Below are positions 17,645 through 42,581 of a stretch of 64,000 nt of DNA, one piece after another. Position 1 is the first letter of the stretch, and each line of letters starts with the position of its first letter. Both the position numbers and the translations under genes were made by a program. The notes below the pieces were generated by a model that saw nothing but the letters and a program-made list of their open reading frames with translations, had not been told where the DNA came from and ran no database searches. This stretch comes from a virus. Location of the stretch: IMG/VR virus record IMGVR_UViG_3300029362_000615; one strand, given 5' to 3'.

Positions 17645-17680
17645 TGACTTCTGTAAAGGTATCCTGTATAATATAGCTAT
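17645..17680 (+). promoter_or_regulatory. near-consensus promoter TTGACT-16/17-TATAAT embedded in a reverse-orientation copy of the 23-bp element GGTATCCTGTATAATATAGCTAT
   Basis: Directly upstream of mazF-like gene. Identical 23-mer at 42431-42453. Confidence 0.6.
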
Positions 17681-17715
17681 GGAACGGAGCTACACTATTA
17701 TAGAGGAGAAAGACT

Positions 17716-18135
17716 ATGGACAACAATATTGACCCAAAGGTCGGAGAGGTTTGGTTGGTTGATCTATCCAATGCGACAGGTCATCAGCAGCGCGGTATTC
17801 GACCGTTCGTTGTGACGAGCAACAATAAGCGCAACTTCTTTAGTCCAACAATTAAAGGGAATCCGTTGTCTTCCAGAATATACAAGCGCTCTCCGGTTCA
17901 TGTTCTACTCTCAAAGGAAGATTGTGATTTCCTAGAGGTTGATAGTATCGTTCTATGTGAAGAGACTGATACACTTAACAAAGGACAGTTCATTAAAAAA
18001 CTTGGTGTCTTGTCGGAGCGTCAGATGAATATGATCGCAATGGCAAGATGCAAGGATGAACCGTTTTTGCTTGCAGCATTCCTGAGCGGCGTACAACATA
18101 CCATGGAATTTCAGAATTTTGCCGCATTTGCTTGA
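17716..18135 (+). CDS. mazF: MazF/PemK-family endoribonuclease toxin (type II TA toxin fold), no adjacent antitoxin
   Basis: GEVWLVDLSNATGHQQRGIRPFVVTS...SPTIKGNP...DSIVLCEETDTLNKGQFIKKLGVLSERQMNMI matches the MazF/Kid consensus. Confidence 0.7.
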   Translation: MDNNIDPKVGEVWLVDLSNATGHQQRGIRPFVVTSNNKRNFFSPTIKGNPLSSRIYKRSPVHVLLSKEDCDFLEVDSIVLCEETDTLNKGQFIKKLGVLSERQMNMIAMARCKDEPFLLAAFLSGVQHTMEFQNFAAFA

Positions 18136-18188
18136 TTTTTTATAAGGTTTAATGGTACACTACATATAATAAGAAGGAGTGTGCCACT

Positions 18189-19115
18189 ATGCTTACTGAA
18201 GAAAAAATCAAAGCTTTTGCCGAAAAGTATTCTGATAGAAGCGGTGAGTTTGTTGCATCGACGATGCGTCACGTCATGGATTACGAGGCCGAGCGTGGGT
18301 ATGAGTTGTTTGACTTCACAAAAGATGATTTCGTAAAGATGTTTGCCAAATATAATTGGGTGAATTCGAGTCGTTCGTTTAAAAATGTGAAGTCAATAAT
18401 CACAGGCTACATCAAAAGTGAAAACGAAACAAGCATGTATGATCTGGCTGACTTTTCAGAGAGCGATGTAAGCGCAGATGATATGTACAATGACAGTTAT
18501 TTTGCGTCGGTTGACGAATTTGTTGACTTCTTAAATAAGTACGAAGAGCCATATCAGATTCGTATGAACGTAATTGCTGTTTTGTACTGGATTGGTCTTA
18601 CTTCCGATGAGATTTCTAATCTAACAATTAACGATGTGGATTTTGAATCTAATACCGTTCTTGATAAGACTGATGTTGACGCAAGGTTAATGGATATTAT
18701 CAAGCAATGTTACGAGATGAAACAGTATGATGCCCCCAATAAGAGCGGTTATAGAACATTTTATGTCATGAATGGCGATTATATCCTACGCAAAACGAAG
18801 GATAAACCCGGTGTAAACAGTGATCCAAAGACGTCTATAATTTCAATTCATGTCTATTTTTCGAGGTTGAACGATATCCTCGAAAAAAGGCATCATTCAA
18901 AAACCTTAGATCAAAGATATTTAGCCAGAAATTGTGAGTATATCAAGGTTTATAACTACTGTAAAACTCATCCAAAATTTAATCTTGCAGAACTTAGTTT
19001 CGGAAATGGTAAAGGTCCTCTTGCGGACATTATCGGAAGAAAGTGCAGTAAAGTTGCCTATCTTAGTTTCCGGCAAGGATATAAAGGTTGGGTTGAATAT
19101 TTCCATGAAAATTAA
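18189..19115 (+). CDS. tyrosine-recombinase-like protein, possibly degenerate (box I Arg replaced)
   Basis: RMNVIAVLYWIGLTSDEISNLTINDVDF resembles integrase box I but has Thr instead of Arg. No clean H-x-x-R motif. Confidence 0.3.
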   Translation: MLTEEKIKAFAEKYSDRSGEFVASTMRHVMDYEAERGYELFDFTKDDFVKMFAKYNWVNSSRSFKNVKSIITGYIKSENETSMYDLADFSESDVSADDMYNDSYFASVDEFVDFLNKYEEPYQIRMNVIAVLYWIGLTSDEISNLTINDVDFESNTVLDKTDVDARLMDIIKQCYEMKQYDAPNKSGYRTFYVMNGDYILRKTKDKPGVNSDPKTSIISIHVYFSRLNDILEKRHHSKTLDQRYLARNCEYIKVYNYCKTHPKFNLAELSFGNGKGPLADIIGRKCSKVAYLSFRQGYKGWVEYFHEN

Positions 19116-19120
19116 AAACA

Positions 19121-19144
19121 GGGGGCTTCGGCCCCTTCATTTTA
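19121..19144 (+). terminator. Rho-independent terminator (GGGGC-TTCG-GCCCC + TTCATTTT)
   Basis: GC stem with UUCG tetraloop and T-tract immediately after the 19115 stop. Confidence 0.7.
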
Positions 19145-19150
19145 ACATGC

Positions 19151-19172
19151 TAACTATATAACACAGGATACC
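19151..19172 (+). promoter_or_regulatory. 22-bp conserved promoter/operator element (forward) TAACTATATAACACAGGATACC
   Basis: One of 5 forward copies located 20-30 nt upstream of gene starts. Confidence 0.5.
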
Positions 19173-19186
19173 TATTAGAAAGGGAG

Positions 19187-21406
19187 ATGCAGATGAGAAC
19201 ACTTTTACTGTTCCGTGGAGCACCCGGTTGCGGGAAGTCCACCTATATTAAAGAGCATAATCTTGAGCAGTACGTATTGAGTGCTGATACACTTCGCCTT
19301 ATGTGCCAGAGCGCACAGGAAACACCTGATGGGCAGATGGAGATTTCTCCGCAGAATGATGATGTTGTATGGGAGATGCTTTTCAAACTGCTTGAGGTGC
19401 GGATGAGCCATGGCGAGTTTACTGTGATTGATGCAACGAATTCCAAGACGGTCGAAATGAATTGTTATAAGAATCTTGCAAAACAGTATCGTTATCGGAT
19501 GTATGTTATTGATATGACGGACCTTCCGATCGAGGAATGCAAACGAAGAAACGCTCAGAGAGAATGGCTAAAGCGAGTTCCTGAAGCGGCTATTGATAAG
19601 ATGTACGCTCGGTTTGCTACTCAAAAAGTTCCTTCTGGCGTGACAGTTCTTCCTTCTACTACGGATGTGATGTCCGATTTGAACTACTGCCCGAATGACT
19701 TTAACCAGTGGAAAAAGATACATATCATCGGTGATATTCATGGCTGCTATACCTGCTTGAGTGAATACCTTGGTGAGATGAAGGACGACGAGCTTTATAT
19801 CTTCGTTGGTGATTATCTCGATCGTGGCATCGAAAACGTTGAGGTATTCAAGTTCTTGTGTGATGTTGTAAATAACAACCGCAAGAATGTGATCCTTTTG
19901 GAAGGGAACCACGAGCATTGGCTGAACAAGTGGGGGCATGATAAACCGGTTCAAAGTGAAGAGTTTGCAAACTACACTCGTCCGCAGCTCTTTAAAGCCG
20001 GTATTGACAAGAACACTGCTCGTAAGATCTATTCCAGAGTCGGCCAGTGTGTCTACTTTGAGTATGATGGTAAGCGGTATTTCGTAAGTCACGGTGGTCT
20101 GAGCTATCTTCCTTATTTTCTTCCGTTCGTGTCTGCGGATCAGATGATTAAAGGCGTAGGCCGCTATCCTGATATACTGACCGTGGCTGAGTCTTGGGAA
20201 AAGTCGATGCCGGATAGCTATATTCAGATCTTCGGCCATCGAAATGTACAGGATGTTCCTATTGATATGGGTCATCGGTGCTACAATCTTGAAGGCAAAA
20301 TCGAGTTTGGTGGATATCTTCGTTGTGTGGAGCTTGAACACGGTCAGCCTATCAAATGCGTAGAAACCAAGAATGATGTATTCCGAAAAGAGGAGCCAAA
20401 GACTGAAACTGCCGTTGAAATGAAAACTGAGTTCGATAACGCAGAACTTGTTAGTAAGATGCGTCAAAGCAAATATGTGTTTGAGAAGCGATTCGGAGAT
20501 ATTTCTTCTTTCAACTTCTCTCGTGAAGCATTTTATAAGAAGCACTGGGATGAGGTTTCTACCAAAGCAAGAGGGTTGTTCATTAACACAAAGACGAATA
20601 AGATTGTAGCTCGAAGCTATGATAAGTTCTTTGCGGTTGATGAGCGGAATGAAACGAGAATTGGAAACCTACAGAACACTTTGAAGTTCCCGGTGACTGC
20701 ATATCTAAAAGAGAACGGATTTCTTGGTATCATTTCGTATGATGCAGAACAGGATGGTCTGTTCATTGCAAGTAAATCCACTCCTGATGGGCCTTTTGCA
20801 GATATGTTCCGAAAGATTCTCATGGATACGACTTCTGATGAAGATCGTAAGAATCTGAAAGAAGTTGCAAAAGAGAATGGCTCCATCATCTTCGAGGTGA
20901 TTGATCCTGTGAATGATGCACATATCATCGAATATAAGAAACCGCACATTGTTTTGCTGGATATTATTGCAAATGATATGAATTTCAGTGTAATGGATTA
21001 TGATGATTTGAAGCGTGTAGCCGAGAAGTGTCATCTGCAGATTAAGGAGAAGGTTAAAACCTTTGAGAACTGGAGTGAATTCTATCCTTGGTACGAAGAA
21101 GTCATGAACGAGAACTATCTGCATCATGGTTTTGAACACGTTGAAGGCTTTGTTTTGCGAGACAGCAATAATTTCATGTTTAAGCTGAAGCTTCTGTATT
21201 ATAAGCACTGGAAGTTCTTGCGTGGTGTCATGCAGAGCGTTCAAAAACGTGGCTATTATGAAAATACCGCAAAGTTGTTTACTGCCGAGGATAACCTGTT
21301 CTATGGTTGGATGCGTGAACAACGAGAGAAAGATCAAGAGTCTTTCTGCAAGAAGGGTATTATTCAGCTGCGGAATGAGTTCTACGCAAGTCAGCAGAAG
21401 AGCTAA
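19187..21406 (+). CDS. pnkp: bacterial-type polynucleotide kinase-phosphatase-ligase (Pnkp) RNA/DNA end-healing and sealing enzyme
   Basis: N-terminal P-loop GAPGCGKST, a central calcineurin-like phosphatase (GDIHG, GDYLDRG, GNHE), and a C-terminal nucleotidyltransferase with KENG lysine motif. Second ATG at 19193 has better RBS spacing. Confidence 0.7.
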   Translation: MQMRTLLLFRGAPGCGKSTYIKEHNLEQYVLSADTLRLMCQSAQETPDGQMEISPQNDDVVWEMLFKLLEVRMSHGEFTVIDATNSKTVEMNCYKNLAKQYRYRMYVIDMTDLPIEECKRRNAQREWLKRVPEAAIDKMYARFATQKVPSGVTVLPSTTDVMSDLNYCPNDFNQWKKIHIIGDIHGCYTCLSEYLGEMKDDELYIFVGDYLDRGIENVEVFKFLCDVVNNNRKNVILLEGNHEHWLNKWGHDKPVQSEEFANYTRPQLFKAGIDKNTARKIYSRVGQCVYFEYDGKRYFVSHGGLSYLPYFLPFVSADQMIKGVGRYPDILTVAESWEKSMPDSYIQIFGHRNVQDVPIDMGHRCYNLEGKIEFGGYLRCVELEHGQPIKCVETKNDVFRKEEPKTETAVEMKTEFDNAELVSKMRQSKYVFEKRFGDISSFNFSREAFYKKHWDEVSTKARGLFINTKTNKIVARSYDKFFAVDERNETRIGNLQNTLKFPVTAYLKENGFLGIISYDAEQDGLFIASKSTPDGPFADMFRKILMDTTSDEDRKNLKEVAKENGSIIFEVIDPVNDAHIIEYKKPHIVLLDIIANDMNFSVMDYDDLKRVAEKCHLQIKEKVKTFENWSEFYPWYEEVMNENYLHHGFEHVEGFVLRDSNNFMFKLKLLYYKHWKFLRGVMQSVQKRGYYENTAKLFTAEDNLFYGWMREQREKDQESFCKKGIIQLRNEFYASQQKS

Positions 21407-21523
21407 ATTAAAAAATAGACATTTTATCGTGATTTTCGTTAAAATAATTAACGAAGTATCGTGACATTTCTTCCTCCGAAAATGCTCTGCGCGGGGCTGA
21501 CAGCCGGGAAAGACCGGCAATAT

Positions 21524-21608
21524 GGGGATATGGTGAAATTGGCAGCCACGCTTGATTCAAACTCAAGTGTCGAAAGACGTATCGGTTCAAATCCGATTAT
21601 CCCTACCA
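21524..21608 (+). tRNA. tRNA-Leu (anticodon CAA), type II with long variable arm, CCA encoded
   Basis: Acceptor GGGGATA/TATCCCT, anticodon loop TTCAAAC, T-loop GGTTCAAATCC. Confidence 0.8.
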
Positions 21609-21808
21609 TGAAGATCAGTTGTTCTAGCTCGTTCGGGGATTGGCCGTACATTGGCGACCGGAAAGACGTCATACCGGTAAAGGACGTCAAGCCAGACAAG
21701 AAGAGAAATAAGGTGTAAGCCGACTAGCTATCGGATAAATACTCTTCGATTCGCCAGAAAACTAGAATGTAAAACGAATGGTTGGCTGTTTCTGATCTTC
21801 TTTTATAT

Positions 21809-21891
21809 GCGCCCGTGGTGGAATCGCAGACACAGGAGACTTAAGATCTTCTGCCAGAGATGGCGTGCGGGTTCAAGTCCCGCCGGGCGCA
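21809..21891 (+). tRNA. tRNA-Leu (anticodon TAA), type II, no encoded CCA
   Basis: Acceptor GCGCCCG/CGGGCGC, anticodon loop CTTAAGA, T-loop GGGTTCAAGTCCC. Confidence 0.8.
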
Positions 21892-21898
21892 TTTGTAT

Positions 21899-21974
21899 CT
21901 GGGCGTAGCGAAGTTGGTATCGCACCTGTTTTGGGAACAGGGGACCGCAAGTTCAAACCTTGTCGCTCAGACCA
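21899..21974 (+). tRNA. tRNA-Pro (anticodon TGG), CCA encoded
   Basis: C1-G72 acceptor pair, anticodon loop TTTGGGA, T-loop AGTTCAAAC. Confidence 0.8.
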
Positions 21975-22061
21975 GCCCGAAAGGGCAAGGAAAAATTGTC
22001 CTCACATTATTCCCGGCTCTCTGGAAACGGAGCAGTGTGACGTAGTAAGCTGGGTATATGA

Positions 22062-22132
22062 TGCGCCATCGCCAAGCGGTAAGGCAGAGGACTTTGACTC
22101 CTCCATCGCAGGTTCGACCCCTGCTGGCGCAA
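22062..22132 (+). tRNA. tRNA-Gln (anticodon TTG), U1-A72 first pair
   Basis: Acceptor TGCGCCA/TGGCGCA, D-arm GCCAAGCGGTAAGGC, anticodon loop CTTTGAC, T-loop GGTTCGACC. Confidence 0.8.
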
Positions 22133-22135
22133 TAT

Positions 22136-22217
22136 GCGGATATGGTGGAATGGCAGACACGCCAGATTTAGGATCTGGTGCTTCGGCGTGTGGGTTCGAT
22201 GCCCACTATCCGCACCA
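22136..22217 (+). tRNA. tRNA-Leu (anticodon TAG), type II, CCA encoded
   Basis: Acceptor GCGGATA/TATCCGC, anticodon loop TTTAGGA, T-loop GGGTTCGATGCCC. Confidence 0.8.
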
Positions 22218-22316
22218 CGGTCATAGAATGGTTGCGTACCGTTTGTTGATCTCCTTTACTATTATTCCCAGCTCGCTCGTAAGAGTGCAGTAGTGCTTTG
22301 TAAGCTGGGTTTACAT

Positions 22317-22391
22317 GCAGCGGTCGTATAACGGTTAGTACATCAGCCTTCCAAGCTGAGGATGAGGTTTCGACTACCTTTCGCTGCTCCA
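22317..22391 (+). tRNA. tRNA-Gly (anticodon TCC), CCA encoded
   Basis: Acceptor GCAGCGG/TCGCTGC, anticodon loop CTTCCAA, T-loop GGTTTCGACTACC. Confidence 0.8.
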
Positions 22392-22581
22392 ATTTCGTAT
22401 GGGTAGGGATTTTAAGCGGTCAGTCCCGGCCGCGCCTGTGCGAAATACCACCCTGAAAGGGGCGAGATATAGGAAATGTGCATCGCTGTTATTCCTTCCT
22501 CGTCTATATGATATAGATGCAATAGTGTTTTATAAGGAAGGTGCCCAGTTGAATAGTTGCAGCTGTTTAACTGGTTTTTAT

Positions 22582-22658
22582 GGGATAGTAGCTCAGCTGG
22601 TCAGAGCTGGCGGCTCATAACCGCTTGGTCGGGAGTTCAAATCTCTCCTGTCCCACCA
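22582..22658 (+). tRNA. tRNA-Met or tRNA-Ile2 (anticodon CAT), elongator type, CCA encoded
   Basis: Acceptor GGGATAG/CTGTCCC with G1-C72 pair, anticodon loop CTCATAA, T-loop GGGAGTTCAAATCTCTC. Confidence 0.8.
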
Positions 22659-22718
22659 GCCCAATAGGGTATACATAAAACTGCTAGAACTTTTGTTTTA
22701 TAGGCGACGAAATAACAT

Positions 22719-22732
22719 GACGTTGATACGTC
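22719..22732 (+). promoter_or_regulatory. variant copy of the palindromic operator (GACGTTGATACGTC)
   Basis: Related to TAACGTGGATACGTTA at 24834 and 53280. Confidence 0.35.
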
Positions 22733-22761
22733 TATTATTTTTTTGCTCATTTTCTGAGTTT

Positions 22762-22783
22762 TAGCTATATAATACAGGATATG
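22762..22783 (+). promoter_or_regulatory. 22-bp conserved promoter/operator element (forward) TAGCTATATAATACAGGATATG
   Basis: Upstream of the methyltransferase gene. Confidence 0.5.
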
Positions 22784-22793
22784 AAAAGGAGGA

Positions 22794-24789
22794 ATGAAAA
22801 CTGAAGCATTACGGAGATATTACACAACTTCATGGGTGGCAGATTGAACCGGTTTCCTGTATCACAGGAGGCAGTCCATGCCAAGATTTGAGTCAGGCCG
22901 GTAAACGTGAAGGTTTGGCTGGTGAACGCTCTGGATTGTTCCTTGAAATGATTCGTGTGATTACAGAAATGAGGGAGGCCACTAATGGAGAATATCCAAA
23001 ATTCGCAATCTGGGAAAATGTCAGAGGAGCTTTCAGCTCAAGCAAAGGTGAAGACTTCAGATGTGTGTTGGAAAGATTTGCACGCATTGTCGAGCCAGAC
23101 GTTTCAATTCCTCGACCTTCAGGGAAGAACGGAAAGTGGGCAAAATCTGGAGCGATTTCCGGTAATGGATGGTCTCTTGCATGGAGATTGTTCGACGCTA
23201 AATACTGGGGAGTCGCCCAGCGTCGCCAGAGAATCGCGCTTGTCATGGATTTTGGAGGACAACGTGCCTCAGAAATTCTATTTGAGCGCACGAGCATGTC
23301 AGGGGATTCTTGTGAGAGCATCCCGGCGTGGAAAACCTTTGCCCGAACTCCTGAAACAAGCGTTGCTGGATATGATCGAATGGTGGAATCCAGGAACTCT
23401 GTCACAGGTGGTGCAGAAAGTGAAGGAACAAGAAGGTCTGGAAGAGAAGGAATTGGACGAGTATTGGAGTCAGACCATCGAGAGACTTCGACTCAATGCA
23501 CAGAACCTGCAGCCTACACTCTAAAAATCCGTTCTGGATGTGAAGGTGGCGGTAAAGGCGCTCTGGTTCAAACTGAATTGAGCGCAACGATTTCTACGTT
23601 ACAAGACCAGACGCTGATTTGCTTGGCAGAAAATCCCTCCTTACATAATTTAAAACAAAAGATTTCGCCGGTGGTGTTTGAGAGCCACAGTCAGGACGCT
23701 CGATACACTCAGCAGAGTGATACAAGTCCGACTTGTACTGCTCAGTGGGGAACTGGTGGCAATAATATGCCACTGGTCATTGAGAAGAAAGCCTTTGCGA
23801 TGCAACGCATTGGTGAATACAAGGAAAGTGAACAGGCTAGTACGATGAAATCTCGTGACTACAAGGACGCTACTGACCTGATTACAGAAAAAGAATCGAA
23901 GAATCTACGATGGATTGTTCGCCGTTTGACTCCTTTGGAGGATGAACGGCTTCAGGGGTTTCCTGAAATTATGGAGGCAAATATTACAGAAATGACAAAA
24001 GATGAATATATTGCTTTCAACTTAGCTACGGGTCAGATTATCGCAGATTGTGAGAATGGAAAAGTGTATACCACAAAAGGTCCCGGCGGAAACATTCTTA
24101 AAGAACCAAAAGAACTTAGTGGGACAATTATTAAAGGTTATCGAGTTGTTAGCATCCGAAATGGTGATGTAAAAAAGCAATGTAGGGTTCATCGAGTTAT
24201 ATGGATTGCTAAAAATGGAATTATTCCAGATGGTCTGGTTGTTGACCATATCAATAACGACAAGCTAGATAATCGAATTAGTAACCTTCAGCTATTAACC
24301 GCAAAGGACAACTCTACTAAAGCTTCAAAGGATGGCCTGTATTTATCTGGAAATGAAAACCCTGTGACAGTTCTTCCAGAAGAAAAACGTATTGAAGTAG
24401 CACTTATGTATCAAACAGGAGAATTTACAATGCGCCAGCTTGCTGAAAGATACGGAATCAGTAAAAGCCGTGTCCAGCAAATTGTAAAAACATATGGATG
24501 GACCGATATTGGCGAGTGGATTGACGAGAATGGTAAAAAGCACAAGCCAGCCGATTCTCCTCGGTACAAGGCGCTCGGCAATTCGATTGCTTTGCCTCAG
24601 TGGTATTGGATTTGCCAGAAGATGAAACCGTATATTGGTGAAAATCCTACGCTTGGCAGTCTTTTCGATGGAATCGGTGGCTTTCCGCTTGTCTTTGAAA
24701 GTACGTATGGTGATGGTACTGCTATCTGGGGATCTGAAATTGAACCGTTTTGTGTTGCGGTGACAAAGAAGCATTTTCCAGAAGATTAA
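22794..24789 (+). CDS. cytosine-5 DNA methyltransferase with circularly permuted motif order (III-IV-VI-VIII-TRD-IX-[HNH+HTH insertion]-X-I-II); apparent 1-nt frameshift after the ATG
   Basis: Motifs GDITQ, GGSPCQ, ENV, QRRQRIALV, RRLTPLEDERLQGFPE, YKALGNSIA, then LFDGIGGF and SEIEP..KHFPE at the C-terminus. ATG 22794 is in frame only if one A of the A4 run at 22797-22800 is removed. The long ORF in the given sequence runs 22798-24789. Confidence 0.6.
24136..24312 (+). other. HNH (HNH_3-type) endonuclease domain inserted in-frame between methyltransferase motifs IX and X, followed by a helix-turn-helix segment to about 24558
   Basis: GYRVVSIRNGDVKKQCRVHRVIWIAKNGIIPDGLVVDHINNDKLDNRISNLQLLTAKDN, then LPEEKRIEVALMYQTGEFTMRQLAERYGISKSRVQQIV. 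Confidence 0.65.
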
Positions 24790-24833
24790 ATCTCATAAAA
24801 GGCTAATTTTAGCAAGAAAATAACGAAAAATTA

Positions 24834-24849
24834 TAACGTGGATACGTTA
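24834..24849 (+). promoter_or_regulatory. palindromic operator TAACGTGGATACGTTA (6-4-6) overlapping a TATAAC -10 box
   Basis: Perfect inverted repeat 30 nt upstream of gene 24879. Second copy at 53280. Confidence 0.5.
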
Positions 24850-24878
24850 AAATATTGCGAAAAGAAAGTGATAAATCA

Positions 24879-25259
24879 ATGAATCCGGTTGAATTTCTTA
24901 GTAACGGACAGTTTAAGGCAAAGAATGGGGAAGATAAGTATTCTGTTAGAATCGCAAGGAAAGGAATGCCATACAAGACTATTTTTGTTCATTATAAAAA
25001 TGGTTTTAATTCCGAACTGATGCTTTCTAGTGAGGTCATTTCTGATGGAACACTTTATTTTACTTACGGAGCTATTAGAGACGTTATTCTGAATACACTT
25101 TCTTTAGCCTATGATGAAAACAAGGCTGTTATATTAGGAGATGTTTTAATTAGTTCTGAAACTGGAAATTTTGGAACAAAAGAAAAGCCGTGGTTATGTG
25201 ATAAAACCGTTGTACGATTACCATACCAATTAGTTGAGGAGTGGCACGATGAACAGTAA
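24879..25259 (+). CDS. hypothetical protein (126 aa) downstream of methyltransferase and under the palindromic operator
   Basis: ATG inside track ORF 24855..25259. Confidence 0.45.
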   Translation: MNPVEFLSNGQFKAKNGEDKYSVRIARKGMPYKTIFVHYKNGFNSELMLSSEVISDGTLYFTYGAIRDVILNTLSLAYDENKAVILGDVLISSETGNFGTKEKPWLCDKTVVRLPYQLVEEWHDEQ

Positions 25260-25479
25260 AATTCCTATCAATGTAACCATTGATTCCGGTTCCTTGAGCC
25301 TTCCGGCAAGTCCTATCTTCCAGAAGGAAAAGAGCACATATCTCTGTCCGTTCTGTGTAACGAAGCTAGAGAAGCTTAAACCGAAATGTCCAGAGTGTCA
25401 TCACAAGATGGATTGGAGTGCGTGGATGGATAAGAATGCAAAGCACAATTATGCATTTGCTGAAAGTGGTGTGTTATGA
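25249..25479 (+). CDS. zinc-ribbon protein
   Basis: CPFC...CPECHH. Confidence 0.45.
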   Translation: MNSKIPINVTIDSGSLSLPASPIFQKEKSTYLCPFCVTKLEKLKPKCPECHHKMDWSAWMDKNAKHNYAFAESGVL

Positions 25480-25850
25480 AAGATTGGATGCACGCAAAGA
25501 AAAAAGAGATTGAGAACATGACTTTTGACCAAGCGAAGGAAATTGTAGAGAAACAAATTCGTCTTGGTAAAGAAGGAGGCCAGTGGTGCCCTCGTGAGCA
25601 TTTAGTAAAGGCTCTCGAAATTATTCTTTCAAAAGCTGAACTTTATGAGTTTAGAACAGATTACAAAGAGCCTCTTTTCGATGACGTTTATAAACGTTAT
25701 GAGTGCCCGGTTTGTTATTACACACTATCAAATCTTGATAACTTCTGTCCACGTTGCGGACAATTACTTGATTGGCGATTTATAAGGCATTGGGAGAGAA
25801 CGATTCGTCCCACGCTTGAAAGACTGCAGAAGGAGGAGGTGCAGAGTTGA
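25476..25850 (+). CDS. zinc-ribbon protein
   Basis: CPVCYYTLSNLDNFCPRCGQ. Confidence 0.45.
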   Translation: MKDWMHAKKKEIENMTFDQAKEIVEKQIRLGKEGGQWCPREHLVKALEIILSKAELYEFRTDYKEPLFDDVYKRYECPVCYYTLSNLDNFCPRCGQLLDWRFIRHWERTIRPTLERLQKEEVQS

Positions 25851-26125
25851 ACATAGATTTCTTCCAACGGCGAAAGACACAGCTTGAAGATACGCTTCTT
25901 TTGAAAAATCAGGCAGTCGATATGCTTGATTATCTAAAGACACATTGTATCAACAGCGACCAATATTGTGCCATTCGGGATTACATTGAAGAAGCTGCTA
26001 AGATTCTGGAGAGTGACCTCGAATATGCAAACAATAAGCTACAGTCCGCATTTAAACCTAAGTATGGCCGGAACAATAGACTGACTCGTGTTCAATCTAA
26101 GATGTTCCGTGATAGAGAATATTAA
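25847..26125 (+). CDS. hypothetical protein
   Basis: ORF track. Confidence 0.4.
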   Translation: MNIDFFQRRKTQLEDTLLLKNQAVDMLDYLKTHCINSDQYCAIRDYIEEAAKILESDLEYANNKLQSAFKPKYGRNNRLTRVQSKMFRDREY

Positions 26126-26142
26126 AAATGGGGTGATGCCGT

Positions 26143-26355
26143 ATGAACACATGTAAAAAAATATGTAACTGGTGTGGTCGTGAAATCAAGCCGATAGGTA
26201 GCGAGCAGGGAATCAGTTTTGAGCATCAATACTCTTATGGTAGCCAACTTGATGGTTCGCTTTTGAGTTTTGATTTGTGTCCTGAGTGTTCAGAACGGCT
26301 CCCAGTAGTGCTCGGCGCAATGTTTGTACATAATCCTTTAAAGGACGATTTCTAA
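26143..26355 (+). CDS. zinc-ribbon protein
   Basis: CNWCGRE...CPECSE. Confidence 0.45.
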   Translation: MNTCKKICNWCGREIKPIGSEQGISFEHQYSYGSQLDGSLLSFDLCPECSERLPVVLGAMFVHNPLKDDF

Positions 26356-26500
26356 CGGCGAGTGCCGTATGAAATACAAGCCATCAATAAGACAGACGGA
26401 GGATAATATATAAAATGAATAGTGCATGAATTGATTCAAGACAATAAAAAGAAATATAAGTGATTATCAATGAAACAAAATTACATAAAGGAGACTTGAT

Positions 26501-27601: not shown

Positions 27602-27614
27602 AATTTTTGCCTTT

Positions 27615-27636
27615 AACTAAGTAACACAGGATACCA
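27615..27636 (+). promoter_or_regulatory. 22-bp conserved promoter/operator element (forward) TAACTAAGTAACACAGGATACC
   Basis: Upstream of gene 27671. Confidence 0.45.
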
Positions 27637-27670
27637 ATAAAAGAAAAGATTTAGAGAGGAATTTACATAT

Positions 27671-29523: not shown

Positions 29524-29536
29524 AAGAGGTTGATAA

Positions 29537-30733: not shown

Positions 30734-30756
30734 AAAATATAGAGGGAGGTGGATGA

Positions 30757-32280: not shown

Positions 32281-32289
32281 GGAACTACA

Positions 32290-35033: not shown

Positions 35034-35034
35034 T

Positions 35035-35577
35035 ATGGGAAATTGGAAACGTGCTATCGCCATCGACTTTGATGGCACTCTCTGTGAGAATAATTATCCT
35101 GATATCGGTGAACCAAACTGGAACGTGATCTACCAGGCAATTCAAGAACAGAAGCACGGTGCTGGTCTGATTCTCTGGACTTGCCGGGAAGGAAAGCTTC
35201 TGTATGATGCAATGGAGGCTTGCTTTGATTGGGGTATTCAGTTTGATGCCATCAATGAGAGTCTTCCTGAGTGGAAAGAGCATTTTGGCACTGCTCCTAG
35301 AAAGGTTGTGGCTGATGAATATTGGGACGATAAGGCTGTGCCTGTGAAAGATGGTAGTCTCGATATTAAAAACAACGAGAAATTGACCATTGAAGAATTA
35401 AAAGAAATGGCTGGACTGCCAGTTTGGTGCTCTGATTCCGAATGCTGGACATTAGTGGAGTGCGATAAGAAAGGCCCATGGAAGGACGTTCCTTTTGTTT
35501 CTTTTCGGAAGAACGGATCTTCGTTTACATGGAACGTTGTAAATCGAGAGCTTTCTTGCTATCGAGGAAAGGTATAA
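35035..35577 (+). CDS. HAD-superfamily phosphatase (possible nucleotidase)
   Basis: Motif I AIDFDGTL. Confidence 0.45.
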   Translation: MGNWKRAIAIDFDGTLCENNYPDIGEPNWNVIYQAIQEQKHGAGLILWTCREGKLLYDAMEACFDWGIQFDAINESLPEWKEHFGTAPRKVVADEYWDDKAVPVKDGSLDIKNNEKLTIEELKEMAGLPVWCSDSECWTLVECDKKGPWKDVPFVSFRKNGSSFTWNVVNRELSCYRGKV

Positions 35578-35581
35578 GCCT

Positions 35582-36346
35582 ATGGCAGTTTACATTACAG
35601 GTGATATTCATGGTGATTACAATCGGTTTTTAGAGCTAAATAAATTTTGTATTAAACATAGGCTTGGAAAGAACGACTGGATCATCTGTCTTGGTGATGT
35701 TGGTCTAAACTATTATGGTAAGGATAACATCAACGAATGGAGAGTTAAGACCATTGCTGCGGACATCCCTGCGAATTTATTCTGTATTCATGGAAATCAC
35801 GAACGCCGCCCGTCTCATAAGGATGGCTATAAGACAAAGGAAATCAGTGGAGATATTTGCGGCAAAGTGTGGCATGACCCACATTATCCCAATCAGTATT
35901 TTGCTATTGATGGTGAAGTTTACCAAATTCTTGCCGATAGGGAAATTCTGAACTGTCTTGTTTGCGGCGGAGCCTATTCTGTAGATAAATATTATCGGTT
36001 GGGACGTGGATGGAACTGGTGGCCGGACGAACAGCCTAATGAGAAGACTAAGAAAAAGATCTGGAATATTACACATGACACTCAAATCGATAATATTGAT
36101 GTTATGCTCACGCATACCTGTCCATTCCGATTTATTCCAACTGAATTGTTTATCGGTGGTATTGATCAAAACACAGTAGACCAGTCAACTGAAATATTCT
36201 TTGATAATATATACGAATGCTATCCTAACGATTGTAAACCATTCTGGTACTTCGGCCATTTCCATGGCAACAAGTACACTGACGACTATGTGATGCTTTT
36301 TGATGACATTATTAAGTTTGGAGATAAGGTGAAGAGTGATGAGTGA
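35582..36346 (+). CDS. calcineurin-like metallophosphoesterase
   Basis: GDIHGD, LGDVG, GNHE. Confidence 0.6.
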   Translation: MAVYITGDIHGDYNRFLELNKFCIKHRLGKNDWIICLGDVGLNYYGKDNINEWRVKTIAADIPANLFCIHGNHERRPSHKDGYKTKEISGDICGKVWHDPHYPNQYFAIDGEVYQILADREILNCLVCGGAYSVDKYYRLGRGWNWWPDEQPNEKTKKKIWNITHDTQIDNIDVMLTHTCPFRFIPTELFIGGIDQNTVDQSTEIFFDNIYECYPNDCKPFWYFGHFHGNKYTDDYVMLFDDIIKFGDKVKSDE

Positions 36347-36581
36347 ATATCATGTGAGCTGTGGTATGTTTGGTATTTACGCAGGAACTGTTAAAAAGAA
36401 TGGAACCGAATGGAAGGATAAAACTCGTGTCACGGATGAAGCTATTGAAGCAGTTCGTGATTGGCTTCTTTCTGAAGCTCAGTTCAATAATAGAACTTTT
36501 GGTGGATACACATGGACAACAAAGGACGGTAAGACTGTAACTTTGAGAGTGTCCATCGAAGATAAGGAGCAGACAAAATGA
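36336..36581 (+). CDS. hypothetical protein
   Basis: ORF track. Confidence 0.4.
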   Translation: MMSEYHVSCGMFGIYAGTVKKNGTEWKDKTRVTDEAIEAVRDWLLSEAQFNNRTFGGYTWTTKDGKTVTLRVSIEDKEQTK

Positions 36582-36612
36582 ATTTAAATAGTATGAAAGG
36601 TGGTGTTGCCTG

Positions 36613-39600
36613 ATGAGTAGCAGTTTACATACGCACTCATACTTTTAGCTTACTCGACGGATTCTCTTCTCCTGAAGAAAATCTAAAAAGAGCATCAGAG
36701 CTTGGTTTAAAAGCCATTGCCATTACGGAACATGGTGAGGTAACAAGCTGGCCGTACTACTCAGAACTAAAAGACAAGTATCCTAGTGTAAAACTTCTTT
36801 ATGGTATTGAGGCATACGAGTGCGAGGACAGGGAAGTCAAGGATAAGAACAGCAAATACTGGCACTTGATCATTATTGCAAAAAACGAAGCTGGCCGTCA
36901 GGCAGTTAATCGTTTATCCACACTTGGTCATCTTCATGGATTCTATAGCCGTCCTCGTATCACAAAAGAGGATATCGCTAAGGAAGATACGAATAATTTG
37001 ATTATCCTGTCTGCTTGTTTGGCAAGTAGGCTATCCAAAACGGATGATTACAACACCTGTATTAAGTTGGTTCAGGAATATAAGAGCTTATTTCCTCACT
37101 ATTATCTTGAGGTTCAGGCTCATGCAAACAGTGAACAAGCAAAATACAACCAGAAAATCATGCGGTTGGCAAACGATACTCACACAAAAGTAGTTGTCAC
37201 AAACGATGTTCATGCTGCTACCAAAGAGGATCTTTATTATCAAGACTACTTCCTTCGTATCGCACATGATACGGAAACTGCCGCAGAAATTTACGAAGGA
37301 TGCTACTTTATGTCTCGTGAAGAGCAACATAAAGTTCTTGATAGCCAGATTGGATATGATGCAGCAGAATGGTGTATCAATAACACTGATGAGGTTGCTG
37401 ACTTGTGTGACTATGTGGATATGCCTTGGCACGAACCTGAACTTCCTAAAATCGAGATTCCTCCACAGTATTCCAACTCAGCAGCTTACTTAAAAGACCT
37501 TGTAAAAGATGGATGGAAGAAACGCAGTATTGACAAGTTTGATGTAGAAAAGCAGAAGATCTATCGTAAGCGTGTTGATGACGAGTTGTTTGTCATTGAG
37601 AAGAAAGACTTCTGTGACTACTTTTTGATTCTGGTTGATTACATTAACTGGTGCAAGCAAAATGATGTCATTGTTGGCCCTGGGCGTGGTTCTGCCGCTG
37701 GCTCACTTGTATGTTACTTGATTGGTATTACGCAGCTTGATTCCATCAAGTATGAACTTGACTTCGGACGATTCCTTACCATTGAGCGAAAAGACCTTCC
37801 TGACGTTGATGTTGATGTCAGTGACCGTGCTAAGGTTGTTGAGTATCTGACACAAAAGTACGGTGAAGATCGAGTAGTTCAGGTTATGAATATCGTGTAT
37901 ACTACTCCGGTTACTTCAATTCAGGATGTTGGTAAGGTGCTCGGTTTCCCGTATGCCGAGATAAGAAAAATCAGTGAGAAGTTCGTTCAAAAGACATGGA
38001 AAGATTGCCTTGAGGCAAATCCAGAAGTGGCTGAAAATCCAAAATACAAGGAACTACTTGATATCGCAAGTCATATCAATGGTCGCCCACGAGGGTATGG
38101 CATCCATGCTGGCGGTGTTATTGTCTGCCGACATCCTTACTATGAATACATCGGTATCCGGCATGGTACTGACGGAGAGCATGTTATTTCCGTTGACAAG
38201 GTGATGGACGAGAAGATTGGACTTGTTAAGTTTGATATTCTTGGTGTTGCGTCGCTGGTTGCCATTGATGAAGCGAAGCGTGAGGATAACATTCCAGACT
38301 GGGAAATTGATATCAACAATCCTGAGTTTGAAAATGACAAGGCATCTTATGATTTGATTTGTTCTGGCCGTACAGACAATTTGTTCCAGATTGAATCGTC
38401 TGGTATGAAAGATCTGGTTGCACAGCTTCAGCCTAGGTCGATTGAAGAGTTGTCTGCTTTGATTGCACTTTATCGTCCTGATGCAATGCCGTCGATTCCT
38501 ACATACGTTGATTGCAAGTATCATCCTGAACATATTCACTACTTCCATCCTGATATGGAACCAATTTTCCGCAGTACCTATGGCGTGAACATCTATCAGG
38601 AACAGAGTATGAAGCTCACGAAGGTCTTTGGCGGTCGAAACGATGCCGGTGCTGACAGAATGCGTAAATGCTTGGCAAAGAAAAAGCCTGAGAAAGTCAA
38701 GGAAGAAGTCGAGCTTCTTCATGATGAGATTATTGCAAATGGATACGACAAAGCGACCGCTGAGTACATTTGCAACGAGTTGTCAACGAAGGGCGGCTAC
38801 GGTTTCAACGCCAGCCATTCTCAGGCATATGCTGTCATCTGCCTTCAAACGGCATACTTAAAAGCACATCATCCACTTGCATTCTTTAAGGCTATGTTGA
38901 ACCTGAATAAAGCAAAGGTTGGCAAGGTCAACAAGATTATGGTGGACGCACGCGGTTTTGATATTCAGATTCTTCCGCCGAGTATCAATCGTTCCGGTAT
39001 GGATTTCACTGTGTCAAATGGCAAAATTCTGTTTGGCTTATCTGCTATCGGTGGTATTGGCAATACACTTGCTGAGGCTATCATTGCAGAGCGAGATATG
39101 AATGGAAAATTTAAGGGGCTTGAAGACTTCACGAGTCGTGTCCGTACAACGAAAGCGCAGATTATTGCATTAGTTAAATCCGGTGCGATTCCTACAAAGA
39201 ACAAACGAGTATTCTTGGAAAAGTACATTGCCAGCGGTTTGGAACAATCTGAGTTTAAGCCAGTCAGTACATTGCCTACCAAGGCAGTTTTGCTGAGTAA
39301 GTGGGATATTGATACAGAGCATTATAAGGTTGGTAAGAAGGTTGATAAAGAAACCGTCCTACGAATCTACAATGAAAAGCGTCGTGTCGTGCATGAAACC
39401 GAGAAGCTGAAAAAGAAAGAAGCATATATGGCCGAGCAGTCAGAGAAGTATTTGAAGGACGAGCAATTCTGGGAGTTCCAGACGTTGCAGACATTTATCA
39501 TCGATAAGAATCCATTTGAAAAGGCATACGAATACATTCAGGATTTCTCTGAAATTGAGGAAGGTGATTCTTGTGTGCTTGTTGGTATTATCGCAAAGAT

Positions 39601-39832
39601 CCAAAAGAAGAAAACAAAGACTGGTATGCAGTTTGCATTTGTAAATCTGTATTCTGGCGATGGTATCATTGAGTTGACCGTATGGCCGAGAGTCTTGTCA
39701 GATTATCAGGATTTGATTGTAAAGGGAAGTCAGGTAGCTGTGCTTGGAAAGAAGGAAGATGAATCGCACGTTATTGCAAACGACTTCAAACCTTACAAAC
39801 AGTGGCTGCATGATAGAGAGATAAAGCAATGA
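36613..39832 (+). CDS. dnaE: DNA polymerase III alpha subunit (DnaE-type, PHP domain plus pol core) with apparent +1 frameshift in a T4 run at 36643-36646
   Basis: MSSSLHTHSYF stop, then SLLDG...ITEHG in the next frame. GPGRGSAAGSLVCYLIGITQLDSIKYELDFGRFL DnaE signature. Confidence 0.85.
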
Positions 39833-40074
39833 ATGATGTTTTATATAATGGTGTTTTATATACTATTGACGGAGAGGTTCTTTGTGAATTTCCTGAATTT
39901 AAAATTGATTGTTACAAAGATAAAACTGTAATTGAGATACATTGTACGAATTGTTGCGTCGTTAGAAAAGTTCAGAAGTGGAAGTTTGACTGCGCAGAAC
40001 AATGTGAGCTTACCACAAAATGGTTTTATTGCAGAGTGTGCGGAGGACTGACAGAATTTAGATTAGGTGCATAA
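39829..40074 (+). CDS. zinc-ribbon protein
   Basis: CTNCC...CRVCGG. Confidence 0.45.
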   Translation: MNDVLYNGVLYTIDGEVLCEFPEFKIDCYKDKTVIEIHCTNCCVVRKVQKWKFDCAEQCELTTKWFYCRVCGGLTEFRLGA

Positions 40075-40089
40075 TAAGAGGGTTATAAA

Positions 40090-42420
40090 GTGGCAGATAA
40101 GAAATTTAATGAAAATATGATCCGTTGCTACATCAGGATAAAACGAGTCTTTTATCCGAAAGATGGGAGGGAGGTGGAGCCCGGCGGCTTCGCCACTTTC
40201 TCCGCCGAGGTGGTAAAAGTCAAGCAGGGAAATCCTATCATGAGCCGATACAGCGACCTCCGGCTAAAAGGCAACGTTCCTAGCCTCGATATGAATAAAA
40301 CTTATTCGTTCTGTGGTGAATATGTTCATCATGAAAAGTTTGGTGATCAGTATAAAATTATCTACATGAATGAGTTTCAAGAGATTACTGACCCGGAAGA
40401 ACAAAAAAGCTTTCTCCGTTTTATTTTGACAGACCATCAGTTTGAGATGCTTTACGAAGCATTCGACAATCCGTATGAAATTATCAAGAATGGTGACATC
40501 AAGGCTCTTTGTACTATTAGCGGTATTACGGAAGGTCGAGCACAAAAGATCATTGACTCTTTTGAACGCAACATTGATAACAGTGAAGCGTACACGAAAC
40601 TGATTGAATACGGTTTGACTCCCAGTGCTATTGAAAAGCTTGTTCGTCAGTATCACGGTGCAGACATTCTGGTAAGAAAGATTGAGGAGAATCCTTACGT
40701 CCTGATCGATGATGTGTATGGTATCGGCTGGAAAAAAGCTGACGCTCTTGCTTTGAACATGGGTCTAAAACACAATTCGCAATTCAGAATCGAAGCTTAC
40801 GTCATGCATTTTCTTGCCGCCCGTGCCGAAGAAGGCAACTCTATCATTCCGGCAAATCAGACAATCAATAGCTGTATCAAGGAACTTGATTTGAACGAGG
40901 GCGACCAAGAAGTTATCAAAAGGGCACTTTTCCATCTGCATGATGTCCGTGAAACACTTTGGTGGAGTGATGACCGTCAGGAATTTGCTTTAACTAGAGT
41001 GTGGAATCTTGAAGATAAAATCGCAAAGGAAATCAAGCGACTGGCGGATGCACCTGTTGAGCCGATTGGTCGAAACATTGATGCAGCAATCAATGAAGCC
41101 GGGAATGCGCTTGGCATCGAGTATACTGAGGAGCAAAGAGATGCTATTAAAAAGGTATGCTCTAGCAACGTCTGTATCTTAACAGGCTACGGCGGAACTG
41201 GCAAAAGTACCGTTGTAGCTGGTGTCTTAAAGGTTCTTCGTGGTAAGTCTTTCGCTCAGACTGCGCTATCTGGTCGTGCTGCAGCTCGTATGCAGGAGAT
41301 TACTGGTCAGGACGGTAAGACCATCCATCGTCTTCTTGGTTATGATATTGAGAACGGTGGGTTTATTCACGATAAGGACAATCCTCTGGATGAGGACATT
41401 ATCATTCTGGATGAGACCTCTATGGTTGGAGCTCAGTTGTTCTATGACTTGATTCAGGCAATCGAAACCGGCAAGCGATTCATTATGATTGGTGATGACG
41501 GTCAGCTTGAGAGTATCGGTATGTGCAACATCTTTAAGGATATGCTTGCATCTAAGGTTGTTCCTGTGGCTCGTTTGACTAAGATCCATCGTCAGGCAGC
41601 TAAGTCTGCAATTATCACGGAGAGTATCAAAGTTCGCAATGCTACGCAGTTGGTTCCTTATGGCTGGGCTGGTAGTGAGATTCGTGGTGAACTTCGTGAT
41701 TTGGAGCTTGATATCTATAAGGACGCAAGTGAATCGTTCAACCACATCATCAATCAGTACCGTACCTTATATAATAAGGTAGGGAATGATAGTGCGAAGA
41801 TTCAGATTGTACTTCCACAGAAGCTGCGTGGCAGTATCTGCACCTACGAGGTCAATAATGCTATTCAGGAAATTGTAAATCCGAGTCATGGTCAGGCAGA
41901 AGCAAAGGTTACAATCTACGGTGATGGCAAGGATAGAGTGTACACTCTGCGTGAAGGCGATCAGGTTATCATCAACAAGAACAACTATGAGCTTCACACA
42001 TACAATCTCAAGACAAAGAAAAAGGAAGAGAAGTGTCCGGTGTTTAACGGAAACCGTGGCATTATCCGAAAGATTGAGAGTAGTTTTATTCTGGTTGATT
42101 TTGACCAGTGGGGCACGATCTTTATTCCTCATTATTTTGGTGGGAATAACATCTGGGCAACGCTTGAACTTGCTTATGCTCTGAGTTGTCATAAACTACA
42201 GGGCAGTGAGGCTCCGTATGTGATTGTTGGTATGGACAATTCCGCATACATGATGTTGACGAGAGAATGGCTCTATACGGCCATCACTCGTGCCAAGAAG
42301 TATTGTGTGATTTGCGCCGAAACTCATGCTCTTGATCGGGCTGTAAAGACTTCGAGAGTTCCATATAAGCGGACGTTCCTGAAGGAATTTTTGCAGAAAG
42401 AATTTTCAGAAAAGCATTGA
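40090..42420 (+). CDS. recD: RecD2-like SF1 ATP-dependent DNA helicase
   Basis: Walker A GYGGTGKST, IILDETSMV, SCHKLQGSEAPYVIV, AITRAKK. Confidence 0.7.
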   Translation: MADKKFNENMIRCYIRIKRVFYPKDGREVEPGGFATFSAEVVKVKQGNPIMSRYSDLRLKGNVPSLDMNKTYSFCGEYVHHEKFGDQYKIIYMNEFQEITDPEEQKSFLRFILTDHQFEMLYEAFDNPYEIIKNGDIKALCTISGITEGRAQKIIDSFERNIDNSEAYTKLIEYGLTPSAIEKLVRQYHGADILVRKIEENPYVLIDDVYGIGWKKADALALNMGLKHNSQFRIEAYVMHFLAARAEEGNSIIPANQTINSCIKELDLNEGDQEVIKRALFHLHDVRETLWWSDDRQEFALTRVWNLEDKIAKEIKRLADAPVEPIGRNIDAAINEAGNALGIEYTEEQRDAIKKVCSSNVCILTGYGGTGKSTVVAGVLKVLRGKSFAQTALSGRAAARMQEITGQDGKTIHRLLGYDIENGGFIHDKDNPLDEDIIILDETSMVGAQLFYDLIQAIETGKRFIMIGDDGQLESIGMCNIFKDMLASKVVPVARLTKIHRQAAKSAIITESIKVRNATQLVPYGWAGSEIRGELRDLELDIYKDASESFNHIINQYRTLYNKVGNDSAKIQIVLPQKLRGSICTYEVNNAIQEIVNPSHGQAEAKVTIYGDGKDRVYTLREGDQVIINKNNYELHTYNLKTKKKEEKCPVFNGNRGIIRKIESSFILVDFDQWGTIFIPHYFGGNNIWATLELAYALSCHKLQGSEAPYVIVGMDNSAYMMLTREWLYTAITRAKKYCVICAETHALDRAVKTSRVPYKRTFLKEFLQKEFSEKH

Positions 42421-42445
42421 CAATTATATTGGTATCCTGTATAAT
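42417..42445 (+). promoter_or_regulatory. perfect consensus sigma-70 promoter TTGACA-17-TATAAT, overlapping the reverse-orientation 23-bp element
   Basis: The helicase stop TGA lies inside the -35 box. Confidence 0.65.
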
Positions 42446-42490
42446 ATAGCTATAAAAAGTCTCCACCTCGGAGGCTTAAAGTTCTCTCTT

Positions 42491-42512
42491 TAGCTATATA
42501 ATGCAGGATACG
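42491..42512 (+). promoter_or_regulatory. 22-bp conserved element (forward) TAGCTATATAATGCAGGATACG, forming a large inverted repeat with the copy at 42431-42453
   Basis: The two arms differ at 2-3 positions. Confidence 0.5.
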
Positions 42513-42523
42513 GGAAAGAAATG

Positions 42524-42555
42524 GCTTGCTCGTAACGACAAGCCTTTCTTTATTA
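42524..42555 (+). terminator. intrinsic terminator/attenuator hairpin GGCTTGcTCG-TAA-CGACAAGCC plus TTTCTTTATT, overlapping the 4-codon mini-ORF MACS (42521-42535)
   Basis: 9-bp stem with T-tract. The stop codon of the mini-ORF forms the hairpin loop. Confidence 0.5.
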
Positions 42556-42581
42556 GCTATAACTATATAACACAGGATACG
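42555..42581 (+). promoter_or_regulatory. conserved element (forward) TAGCTATAACTATATAACACAGGATACG upstream of ligase
   Basis: Fifth forward copy. Confidence 0.45.

Follow-up and report, generated by a model that had tools for sequence, protein, structure and literature searches.

A 64,000-nucleotide stretch of viral DNA (IMG/VR record IMGVR_UViG_3300029362_000615; hereafter the window) carries a 21-bp element that recurs between genes in both orientations. The element probably forms the operator set of a repressor of the MrpR/SroF type, encoded at 18189-19115 of the same stretch, and would then be a functional counterpart of SPBRE, the repeated regulatory site of the Bacillus phage SPbeta. 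The phage is SPbeta-like in its gene content, it encodes a homolog of the SPbeta repressor, and its sites are long, asymmetric and repeated. A repressor operator set is therefore the best explanation of the element.

The precedent is well described. In SPbeta, about 10 promoter regions carry an SPBRE to which the master repressor MrpR (YopR) binds, as established by chromatin affinity purification sequencing (ChAP-seq), electrophoretic mobility shift assays and reporters. The sites include those at yonP, in the RNA polymerase operon, and at yopM, in the repressor's own operon, and the protein has a tyrosine-recombinase fold but no recombinase activity (PMC10516654). SroF, the phi3T/SPbeta repressor, clamps DNA as a monomer and reads 24 of the 26 bp of a long operator; its sites are multiple and dispersed over the genome, and the motifs are phage-specific (bioRxiv 10.1101/2025.11.27.690993). 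Our reading would extend this repressor system from Bacillus SPbeta phages to a large and abundant uncultured family of phages of about 135 kb, partly from human-gut samples, and provides a precise predicted operator consensus and site map for it.

The element and its placement

Seven copies lie in the window, each with at most three mismatches to TAGCTATATAAYRCAGGATAC, where 100 dinucleotide-preserving shuffles lead one to expect 0.00. Five are on the plus strand, starting at 19151, 22762, 27614 (three mismatches), 42491 and 42560, and two are on the minus strand, at 17659 and 42432. A preliminary description of this DNA had proposed a repeated element in both orientations, and the counts bear it out. 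Its five forward copies are all present, with the second pre-ligase copy starting at 42560 instead of 42555 and the copy before the Sak4-like ATPase gene at 27614. The 23-mer GGTATCCTGTATAATATAGCTAT, reported there as an identical pair of reverse complements, indeed has the same letters at 17658 and 42431. The motif search that the preliminary description had suggested was run by weight matrix on the 64 kb, and the loci of relatives were scanned as well; the copies are all intergenic. In the window the seven copies score 35-39 bits and everything else 10 bits or less; because no other site in the 64 kb exceeds 10 bits, the element is a discrete class.

The consensus of the element, TA(G/A)CTA-(T/C)A(T/C)(A/T)A(T/C)-ACAGGATAC, holds about 38 bits across 11 site classes. 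Its 21-bp core is asymmetric and has no dyad symmetry, as in a long, non-palindromic operator. Reverse and forward copies differ by a single central base (TATATTAT versus TATATAAT), and both orientations give TATAAT on the coding strand. A partial copy, TAGCTAT at 42554, adjoins the copy at 42560. The intergenic flanks are wholly unlike from one site to the next.

Relatives were collected by an exact-pattern scan of IMG/VR and a helicase-based search, which yielded more than 150 contigs, many of about 130-139 kb, with helicases 94-99% identical. The motif is present in these related genomes: 526 instances over all fetched loci reduce to about 12 orthologous site classes per genome of about 135 kb, every one intergenic. 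The classes comprise the seven sites of the window, two further pairs and a single copy. One pair, reverse and forward, lies about 850 bp upstream of the window start (site A, 14142-14221 of the related contig L011). The other is back to back at a strand-switch junction that heads the RNA polymerase arm (site B, L011 7045-7124). The single copy stands in the other arm, directly upstream of a gene for a 930-amino-acid (aa) polymerase. Nine classes share the direction of their genes, including the two copies of the divergent junction, and three run against it. The three pairs of reverse and forward copies are spaced alike, with exactly 38 bp from core to core.

Within a site as well as from site to site, the variable positions fall mostly in the central six bases (CATAAT, TACAAT, AAGTAAC, CACAAC, CGTGAC), and the outer blocks TARCTA and ACAGGATAC are almost invariant among relatives. 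Fixed outer blocks around a variable centre fit a protein that reads the outer segments. At the promoter at 42417, which holds the copy at 42432, all 78 relatives have TTGACA and TATAAT, and the 9 nt that separate the -35 box from the element differ freely among them. Footprinting across the helicase-ligase spacer gave no clear contrast between the element and its flanks, the relatives being too closely related, and the alignment is informative only for the mini-ORF, the hairpins and variation within the element.

The placement of the copies divides them by orientation. All window genes are on the plus strand, and a -35 box, a spacer of 16-18 nt and a -10 box occur together at reverse copies only. 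The copy at 17659-17679 (minus strand) lies within a sigma-70-type promoter, TTGACT-17-TATAAT at 17644-17672 (plus strand), which matches the consensus at 11 of 12 positions. This promoter drives the repressor's operon, and the copy is a proposed autoregulatory operator; orthologous copies exist in 22 related loci. The copy at 42432-42452 (minus strand) lies in the same way within TTGACA-17-TATAAT at 42417-42445 (plus strand), a 12/12 match, and the reverse copy of site A within TTGACA-17-TATTAT (L011 14127-14155). All three share one register, TTGAC(A/T)-N9-GTATCCTG-TAT(A/T)(A/C)T, and cover about -20 to +1 of the promoter. The consensus sigma-70 promoters that the preliminary description saw at the two window copies are thus confirmed, and the copies do follow a -35 box; the distance is 8 nt for the 23-mer and 9 nt for the 21-bp core, not 10-11 nt.

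Only three plus-strand sites in the window reach 11-12 of 12 positions of the sigma-70 consensus, and these two promoters are among them. The third, TTGACG-16-TATAAT at 17228-17255, has no copy of the element. It drives a 108-aa open reading frame (ORF) at 17298-17624, immediately upstream of the repressor operon, in a position that would suit an antirepressor. No LexA-box-like sequence was seen by eye.

The forward copies (all plus strand) stand close before genes. That at 19151-19171 follows the repressor gene and a terminator-like GC hairpin (19120-19136, ending 14 nt before it) and lies 15 nt 5' of the ATG of the Pnkp/RNA-ligase gene at 19187. The copy at 22762-22782 follows a seven-tRNA cluster and a hairpin, 11 nt 5' of the ATG at 22794 in a DNA methyltransferase region. 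The copy at 27614-27634, with the degenerate centre AAGTAAC, is 36 nt 5' of the Sak4-like ATPase gene (ATG 27671) at the head of the replication module. That at 42560-42580 abuts an AAGGAGG Shine-Dalgarno sequence and is 13 nt 5' of the ligase ATG at 42594. The placement ahead of genes had been described correctly; the distances of 15, 11, 36 and 13 nt from the 3' ends to the ATGs replace the 20-30 nt given before. No forward copy reaches 9/12 in the sigma-70 promoter scan.

The ligase leader combines both kinds of placement. It runs from the 12/12 promoter with its reverse copy through a small hairpin in the 38-bp spacer (42457-42473), a first forward copy (42491-42511), a strong hairpin directly after it and the second forward copy to the AAGGAGG sequence and the ligase ATG. 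The inverted repeat described between helicase and ligase is real. Its arms (42432-42452 and 42491-42511) share 19 of 21 bases, and 38 bp, not 37, separate the cores. In relatives, C-G pairs of the small hairpin change to T-A in a compensatory manner, and the large hairpin is conserved. The latter, at 42523-42554, looks like an intrinsic terminator and, flanked by an A tract and a T tract, has a bidirectional appearance. The order of promoter, hairpin and forward copy recurs at site A.

A second motif, TTATAACGT(G/A)GATACGTTAAA, occurs at 24831-24851 and 53277-53297 (two copies, zero expected), just upstream of the gene starts at 24855 and 53312. It is a palindrome, AACGT..ACGTT, has TATAAC..GATAC in common with the main element, and may be another operator.

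The proposed repressor, its operon and the phage

The protein encoded at 18189-19115 (plus strand, 308 aa) belongs, as judged from profile and model comparisons, to the MrpR/YopR/SroF family. A profile of 40 diverse homologs, compared with the PDB, matched YopR (8bj6) over its full length at E 6.4e-14, with XerA next at 1.6e-4. Alignment to SPbeta YopR by hhalign gave 97.5% probability and E 5.5e-12 over 258 columns. The AF2 model (pLDDT 91.6) has a tyrosine-recombinase fold, and the top seven Foldseek matches to it were phi3T SroF-DNA, SroF-Sar, YopR and MrpR structures (E 3e-8 to 4e-6). True recombinases came in at E above 1e-3, more than 1000-fold worse. Active recombinases have GLR at the box-I arginine position. 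In the hhalign alignment, which locates this one catalytic position, the 308-aa protein has GLT and YopR has GLA. A tyrosine, Tyr298, is near-invariant across the family of the 308-aa protein.

The gene is the second of an operon driven by the 17644 promoter with its reverse copy. The first gene after that promoter (17716-18135, plus strand) encodes a MazF/PemK-like toxin (PHROG 1936, E 7.5e-22; Pfam PemK_toxin, E 2e-19), and the pairing of the two genes is retained in distant relatives. The preliminary description had seen in the element a phage-specific regulatory site laid over host-type promoters, or a sigma-factor recognition site. The first idea gains support from the matching regulator gene beside one reverse copy. 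The second fares poorly: Pfam or PHROG scans of about 55 of the roughly 120 window ORFs, larger unannotated ones included, turned up no sigma factor and no regulator other than the MrpR-like protein, and the forward copies tolerate loss of the -10-like hexamer (CGTGAC, AAGTAAC).

The surroundings of the operon (15770-21406) are rich in functions of RNA damage and repair. An RlaP-like nucleotidyltransferase gene (15770) precedes the MazF-like endoribonuclease gene (17716) and the repressor gene, and a 739-aa fusion of Pnkp kinase, phosphatase and RNA ligase follows at 19187. Behind it a cluster of seven tRNA genes (21524-22658: Leu-CAA, Leu-TAA, Pro-TGG, Gln-TTG, Leu-TAG, Gly-TCC, Met-CAT) stands ahead of the copy at 22762, and there is more tRNA-like sequence past the polymerase arm (12430-13100 of contig L040). 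The arrangement suggests a tRNA and RNA repair module against host anticodon nucleases.

Downstream of the 22762 copy lies a C5 DNA methyltransferase frame (22794-24789, KLKHYGDITQL..GGSPCQDLS) that offers no ATG of its own; the one at 22794 is out of frame by one base and meets a stop after 17 codons. The methyltransferase frame begins near motif IV, so that motif I is missing; one relative has a GTG in frame there, and an HNH endonuclease domain is inserted at residues of about 389-545.

Further upstream, at 11308-12129 (L011 12344-13246), is a second tyrosine-recombinase gene, of 273 aa. HxxR and a C-terminal Tyr are visible by eye in its product, and it may be the true integrase. A ParB-like gene lies near it. 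Some of the contigs that bear homologs are 0.4-0.8 Mb long, which fits a temperate or plasmid-prophage lifestyle.

That the phage is SPbeta-like rests first on its polymerase. In related contigs the gene for the 930-aa protein lies on the minus strand (L011 1343-4132), some 10-13 kb upstream of where the window begins. The protein has a DFDGD catalytic motif and a Pfam RdRP (PF05183) match at E 9e-15. It matches SPbeta yonO in tblastn at E 5e-19 (25% identical), and proteins of Clostridium phage c-st and of Enterocloster phages are 38-40% identical to it. YonO is a single-subunit, two-barrel DNA-dependent RNA polymerase for the late genes of SPbeta (PMC5467207). A more distant relative has Pfam YorF and Phage_SPbeta_YorH in the same synteny. 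The window itself encodes PolIII-alpha, DnaB-like, RecJ-like, helicase, ligase, ThyX and NrdD proteins, and the anaerobic ribonucleotide reductase gene nrdD suggests that the host is anaerobic. Past the polymerase gene, the next 6 kb hold ClpP-like, PhoH-like and phosphoesterase genes and more tRNA-like sequence, with no structural genes and no further copies of the element. The copies found stand before early-type genes. Directly downstream of the right-hand junction copy of site B, some 1.9 kb (L011 7125-8970, shortly before the window in relatives) have no plus-strand ORF of at least 70 aa and two short minus-strand ORFs. The stretch recalls the unannotated non-coding RNA beside yonK in SPbeta; blastn and nhmmer found no similarity to that region, and there was no Rfam match.

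The phage is known from metagenomic contigs only. A megablast of 40000-45000 against the phage database gave no match, and a search for a host through genome contigs returned unrelated helicases only. PolIII-alpha is at most 34% identical to its counterparts in Alicyclobacillus and Brevibacillus phages, and there is no close cultured phage. The PolIII-alpha gene itself seems to need a +1 frameshift close to its start, at 36613-36650. Frame 1 runs ATG..LHTHSYF and then meets TAG, and the canonical SLLDGFSSPEEN..AIAITEHG resumes one base later, at TAC TTT TAG CTT. The TTTTAG is present in 9 of 9 relatives located by pattern (71 of 80 loci were unmatched), and this may be a programmed shift like that of prfB.

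A model of repression and its rivals

From the homology of the repressor, the statistics of its sites and their placement we infer binding and repression along the following lines. In a lysogen, single repressor molecules would clamp each site. At 17659, at 42432 and at the reverse copy of site A, the promoter would be closed to host RNA polymerase while the repressor is bound. The register of these reverse copies appears ideal for occlusion, and a monomeric binder should be able to work either way round. At the other sites, a gene-oriented operator would stand directly ahead of the ribosome-binding site of an early operon's first gene; the operons concerned would be those for RNA repair, the methylase, replication, ligase and nucleotide metabolism, and the YonO-like RNA polymerase. 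There the operator may cover a weak promoter that consists of a -10 box only, or act as a roadblock to read-through transcription. One could speculate that a polar roadblock by a monomeric clamp would also explain the orientation bias of the sites. Upon induction, removal of the repressor would free all early operons together, and with them the phage RNA polymerase for the late genes.

Several points weigh against this model. First, comparison of single sequences gives weak evidence for the repressor: BLASTP against YopR yielded E 0.87, neither BLASTP nor tblastn against YopR/YopP was significant, Pfam MrpR_N_CB scored 20.8 bits, under its cut-off, and a precomputed MrpR_C_cat match was weak. 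Only profile and fold comparisons succeeded. Second, the pairing of repressor and operator gains no support from co-variation, since a relative with a 71% identical repressor keeps the same operator. In another relative (L206, repressor 34% identical) there was no obvious repeated operator in 21 kb, and the contig of a third, at 37% identity, is 1.3 kb long. Third, the element has no sequence similarity to the five SPBRE copies that we located in SPbeta. This is not disqualifying, because the phi3T and SPbeta repressors already read different motifs. Fourth, the forward copies at 19151 and 42560 follow terminators, are the sole signal before pnkp and the ligase gene, and carry TATAAC (CGTGAC in the pnkp copy of one relative). 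As these copies have no recognisable sigma-70 promoter, the model leaves the promoter of pnkp and ligase unexplained. Finally, a simple repressor site does not require the strict co-orientation of nine non-promoter copies with their genes.

The last two points would be met if the element were instead, or in addition, the promoter of the phage's own YonO-like single-subunit polymerase. Forward copies would then start transcription a few bases before the ribosome-binding site, and reverse copies would give antisense transcripts, block the host promoter that they overlap, or do both. We consider this unlikely, though several points speak for it. The phage does encode a YonO homolog with the catalytic motif, and an asymmetric, near-invariant motif of about 21 bp is typical of such polymerases. 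Nine of 12 sites are directed at genes, on both arms of the divergent junction. Forward copies stand after terminators and 0-20 nt before the Shine-Dalgarno sequence, with no sigma-70 promoter, and they persist when the -10 hexamer is lost. No promoter sequence of YonO has been published (PMC5467207). What decides us against it is, first, that YonO of SPbeta serves only the late structural and lysis operon, from one start site, other induced genes being independent of it (PMC5467207), whereas here it is early-type genes, and the gene of the polymerase itself, that follow the element. In addition, three antisense copies lie exactly on consensus host promoters, which an operator explains simply and a promoter does not. 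Enterocloster phage PMBT24, with a polymerase about 39% identical (38-40%), lacks the element, and a repressor of the cognate type, from a family known for such sites, is encoded beside one copy.

The two functions might also be united in one dual-purpose element, serving as repressor operator and as promoter of the YonO-like polymerase, with both proteins competing for the same 21 bp. Such a design would explain why the element follows a terminator with no host promoter in between, why nine copies strictly keep the orientation of their genes, and why the -10 hexamer can be lost. It would also have consequences of interest: inverted copies would turn off consensus host promoters once the phage polymerase appears, and the element would be the first promoter consensus for the YonO polymerase family. 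We nevertheless give it only a slim chance. The source of transcription of the operons that have the element as their only upstream signal bears on the promoter question for YonO-type RNA polymerases.

It is improbable that the element is bound by some other phage or host regulator, or acts in messenger RNA, for instance in MazF-like cleavage, translational control or recognition by RNA-repair enzymes. Forward copies would lie in 5' leaders beside the Shine-Dalgarno sequence, and the MazF-like toxin and the RNA-repair module (RlaP, Pnkp/RNA ligase) flank the copies at 17658 and 19151. Reverse copies, however, are equally conserved and yet for the most part would not be transcribed, or would be read as antisense; a MazF site has 3-7 nt rather than 21; and the window ORFs scanned hold no other DNA-binding regulator.

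Still more doubtful is the view that all copies are plain host sigma-70 promoters, strong where a -35 box is present and weak where it is absent, with no phage factor involved and with the similarity around them due to common descent or cassette duplication. Both orientations place TATAAT or TATAAC on the coding strand, the one base by which TATATTAT and TATATAAT differ restores a plus-strand TATAAT, and the reverse copies are near-consensus. Against this, the best-kept blocks, ACAGGATAC and TARCTA, lie outside the -10 hexamer, which itself varies (CGTGAC, AAGTAAC, CACAAC). About 38 bits is far above what a sigma-70 promoter needs, and the forward copies all fall short of 9/12. Nor is the element a duplicated cassette, because the intergenic flanks differ completely between sites.

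The preliminary description had further read the ligase leader (42491-42580) as a leader-peptide transcription attenuator. A four-codon mini-ORF (MACS, ATG GCT TGC TCG TAA, 42521-42535) does overlap the strong hairpin (42523-42544, followed by the T tract) upstream of the ligase gene. We reject the attenuator as scarcely credible: the mini-ORF lacks a Shine-Dalgarno sequence, 10 of the 78 relatives have AAG or ACG in place of its ATG yet retain the hairpin, the alternative ATG of the AATGAAAGAACGG variants is out of frame with the TAA, folding gives the terminator only and no competing antiterminator, four codons offer no sensing logic, and site A has the same layout with no mini-ORF.

Comparison with known systems

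For the predicted operator set, the closest comparison is with SPbeta and phi3T. The repressors are homologous, with a tyrosine-recombinase fold serving as the DNA binder, and in each case a long, asymmetric, non-palindromic operator is present in about 10-12 copies at early-operon control regions of an SPbeta-like genome of about 135 kb. As in SPbeta, both the RNA polymerase operon and the operon of the repressor itself have copies; the counterpart of the yonP site is the junction pair together with the copy before the polymerase gene, and that of the yopM site is the copy at 17659. In both phages, too, the repressor gene is tied to toxin-antitoxin biology (YopM/MazE in SPbeta, the MazF-like protein here). 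We located five SPBRE copies in 26 kb of SPbeta, all of them gene-oriented. Those at yopM and yopV abut the Shine-Dalgarno sequence, the yonP copy ends 11 nt before it, and those at aimR and yonT abut or overlap the -35 region. Gene-oriented copies at or just 5' of the ribosome-binding site are thus a feature of both systems. Arbitrium genes did not turn up, and no search was aimed at them.

The differences are just as clear. The operator here, TARCTA-N6-ACAGGATAC, is unlike the SPBRE consensus cAAATAcAAAwAATATGTATATAr, and the repressor is about 14% identical. Three copies here are inverted and stand in a fixed register in sigma-70 promoters, whereas none of the five SPBREs located is inverted, and in all three inverted pairs the cores are exactly 38 bp apart. 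For several of the gene-oriented copies here no host promoter can be recognised. The host appears to be an uncultured gut anaerobe, not Bacillus.

Other phage systems offer partial likenesses. The 23-bp promoters of single-subunit phage RNA polymerases of the T7 type are, like the element, near-invariant directional motifs (about 21 bp here) upstream of genes in a phage that encodes its own polymerase, but here the copies stand at early-type genes and the polymerase gene, and some lie antisense on host promoters. Operators of the lambda type overlap the -10 box and spacer of strong early promoters and coordinate lysogenic repression, as is proposed here; they differ in being short palindromes bound by cooperative dimers at one or two loci, where this phage has a dozen long asymmetric sites. 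The kind of switch is most likely the one already known from SPbeta, and this phage another example of it rather than of a new mechanism. New here are the unrelated operator sequence, the inverted copies built into consensus promoters and the fixed 38-bp inverted pairs. They predict that asymmetric operators bound by a monomer can be used either way round, even inside consensus host promoters in a fixed register.

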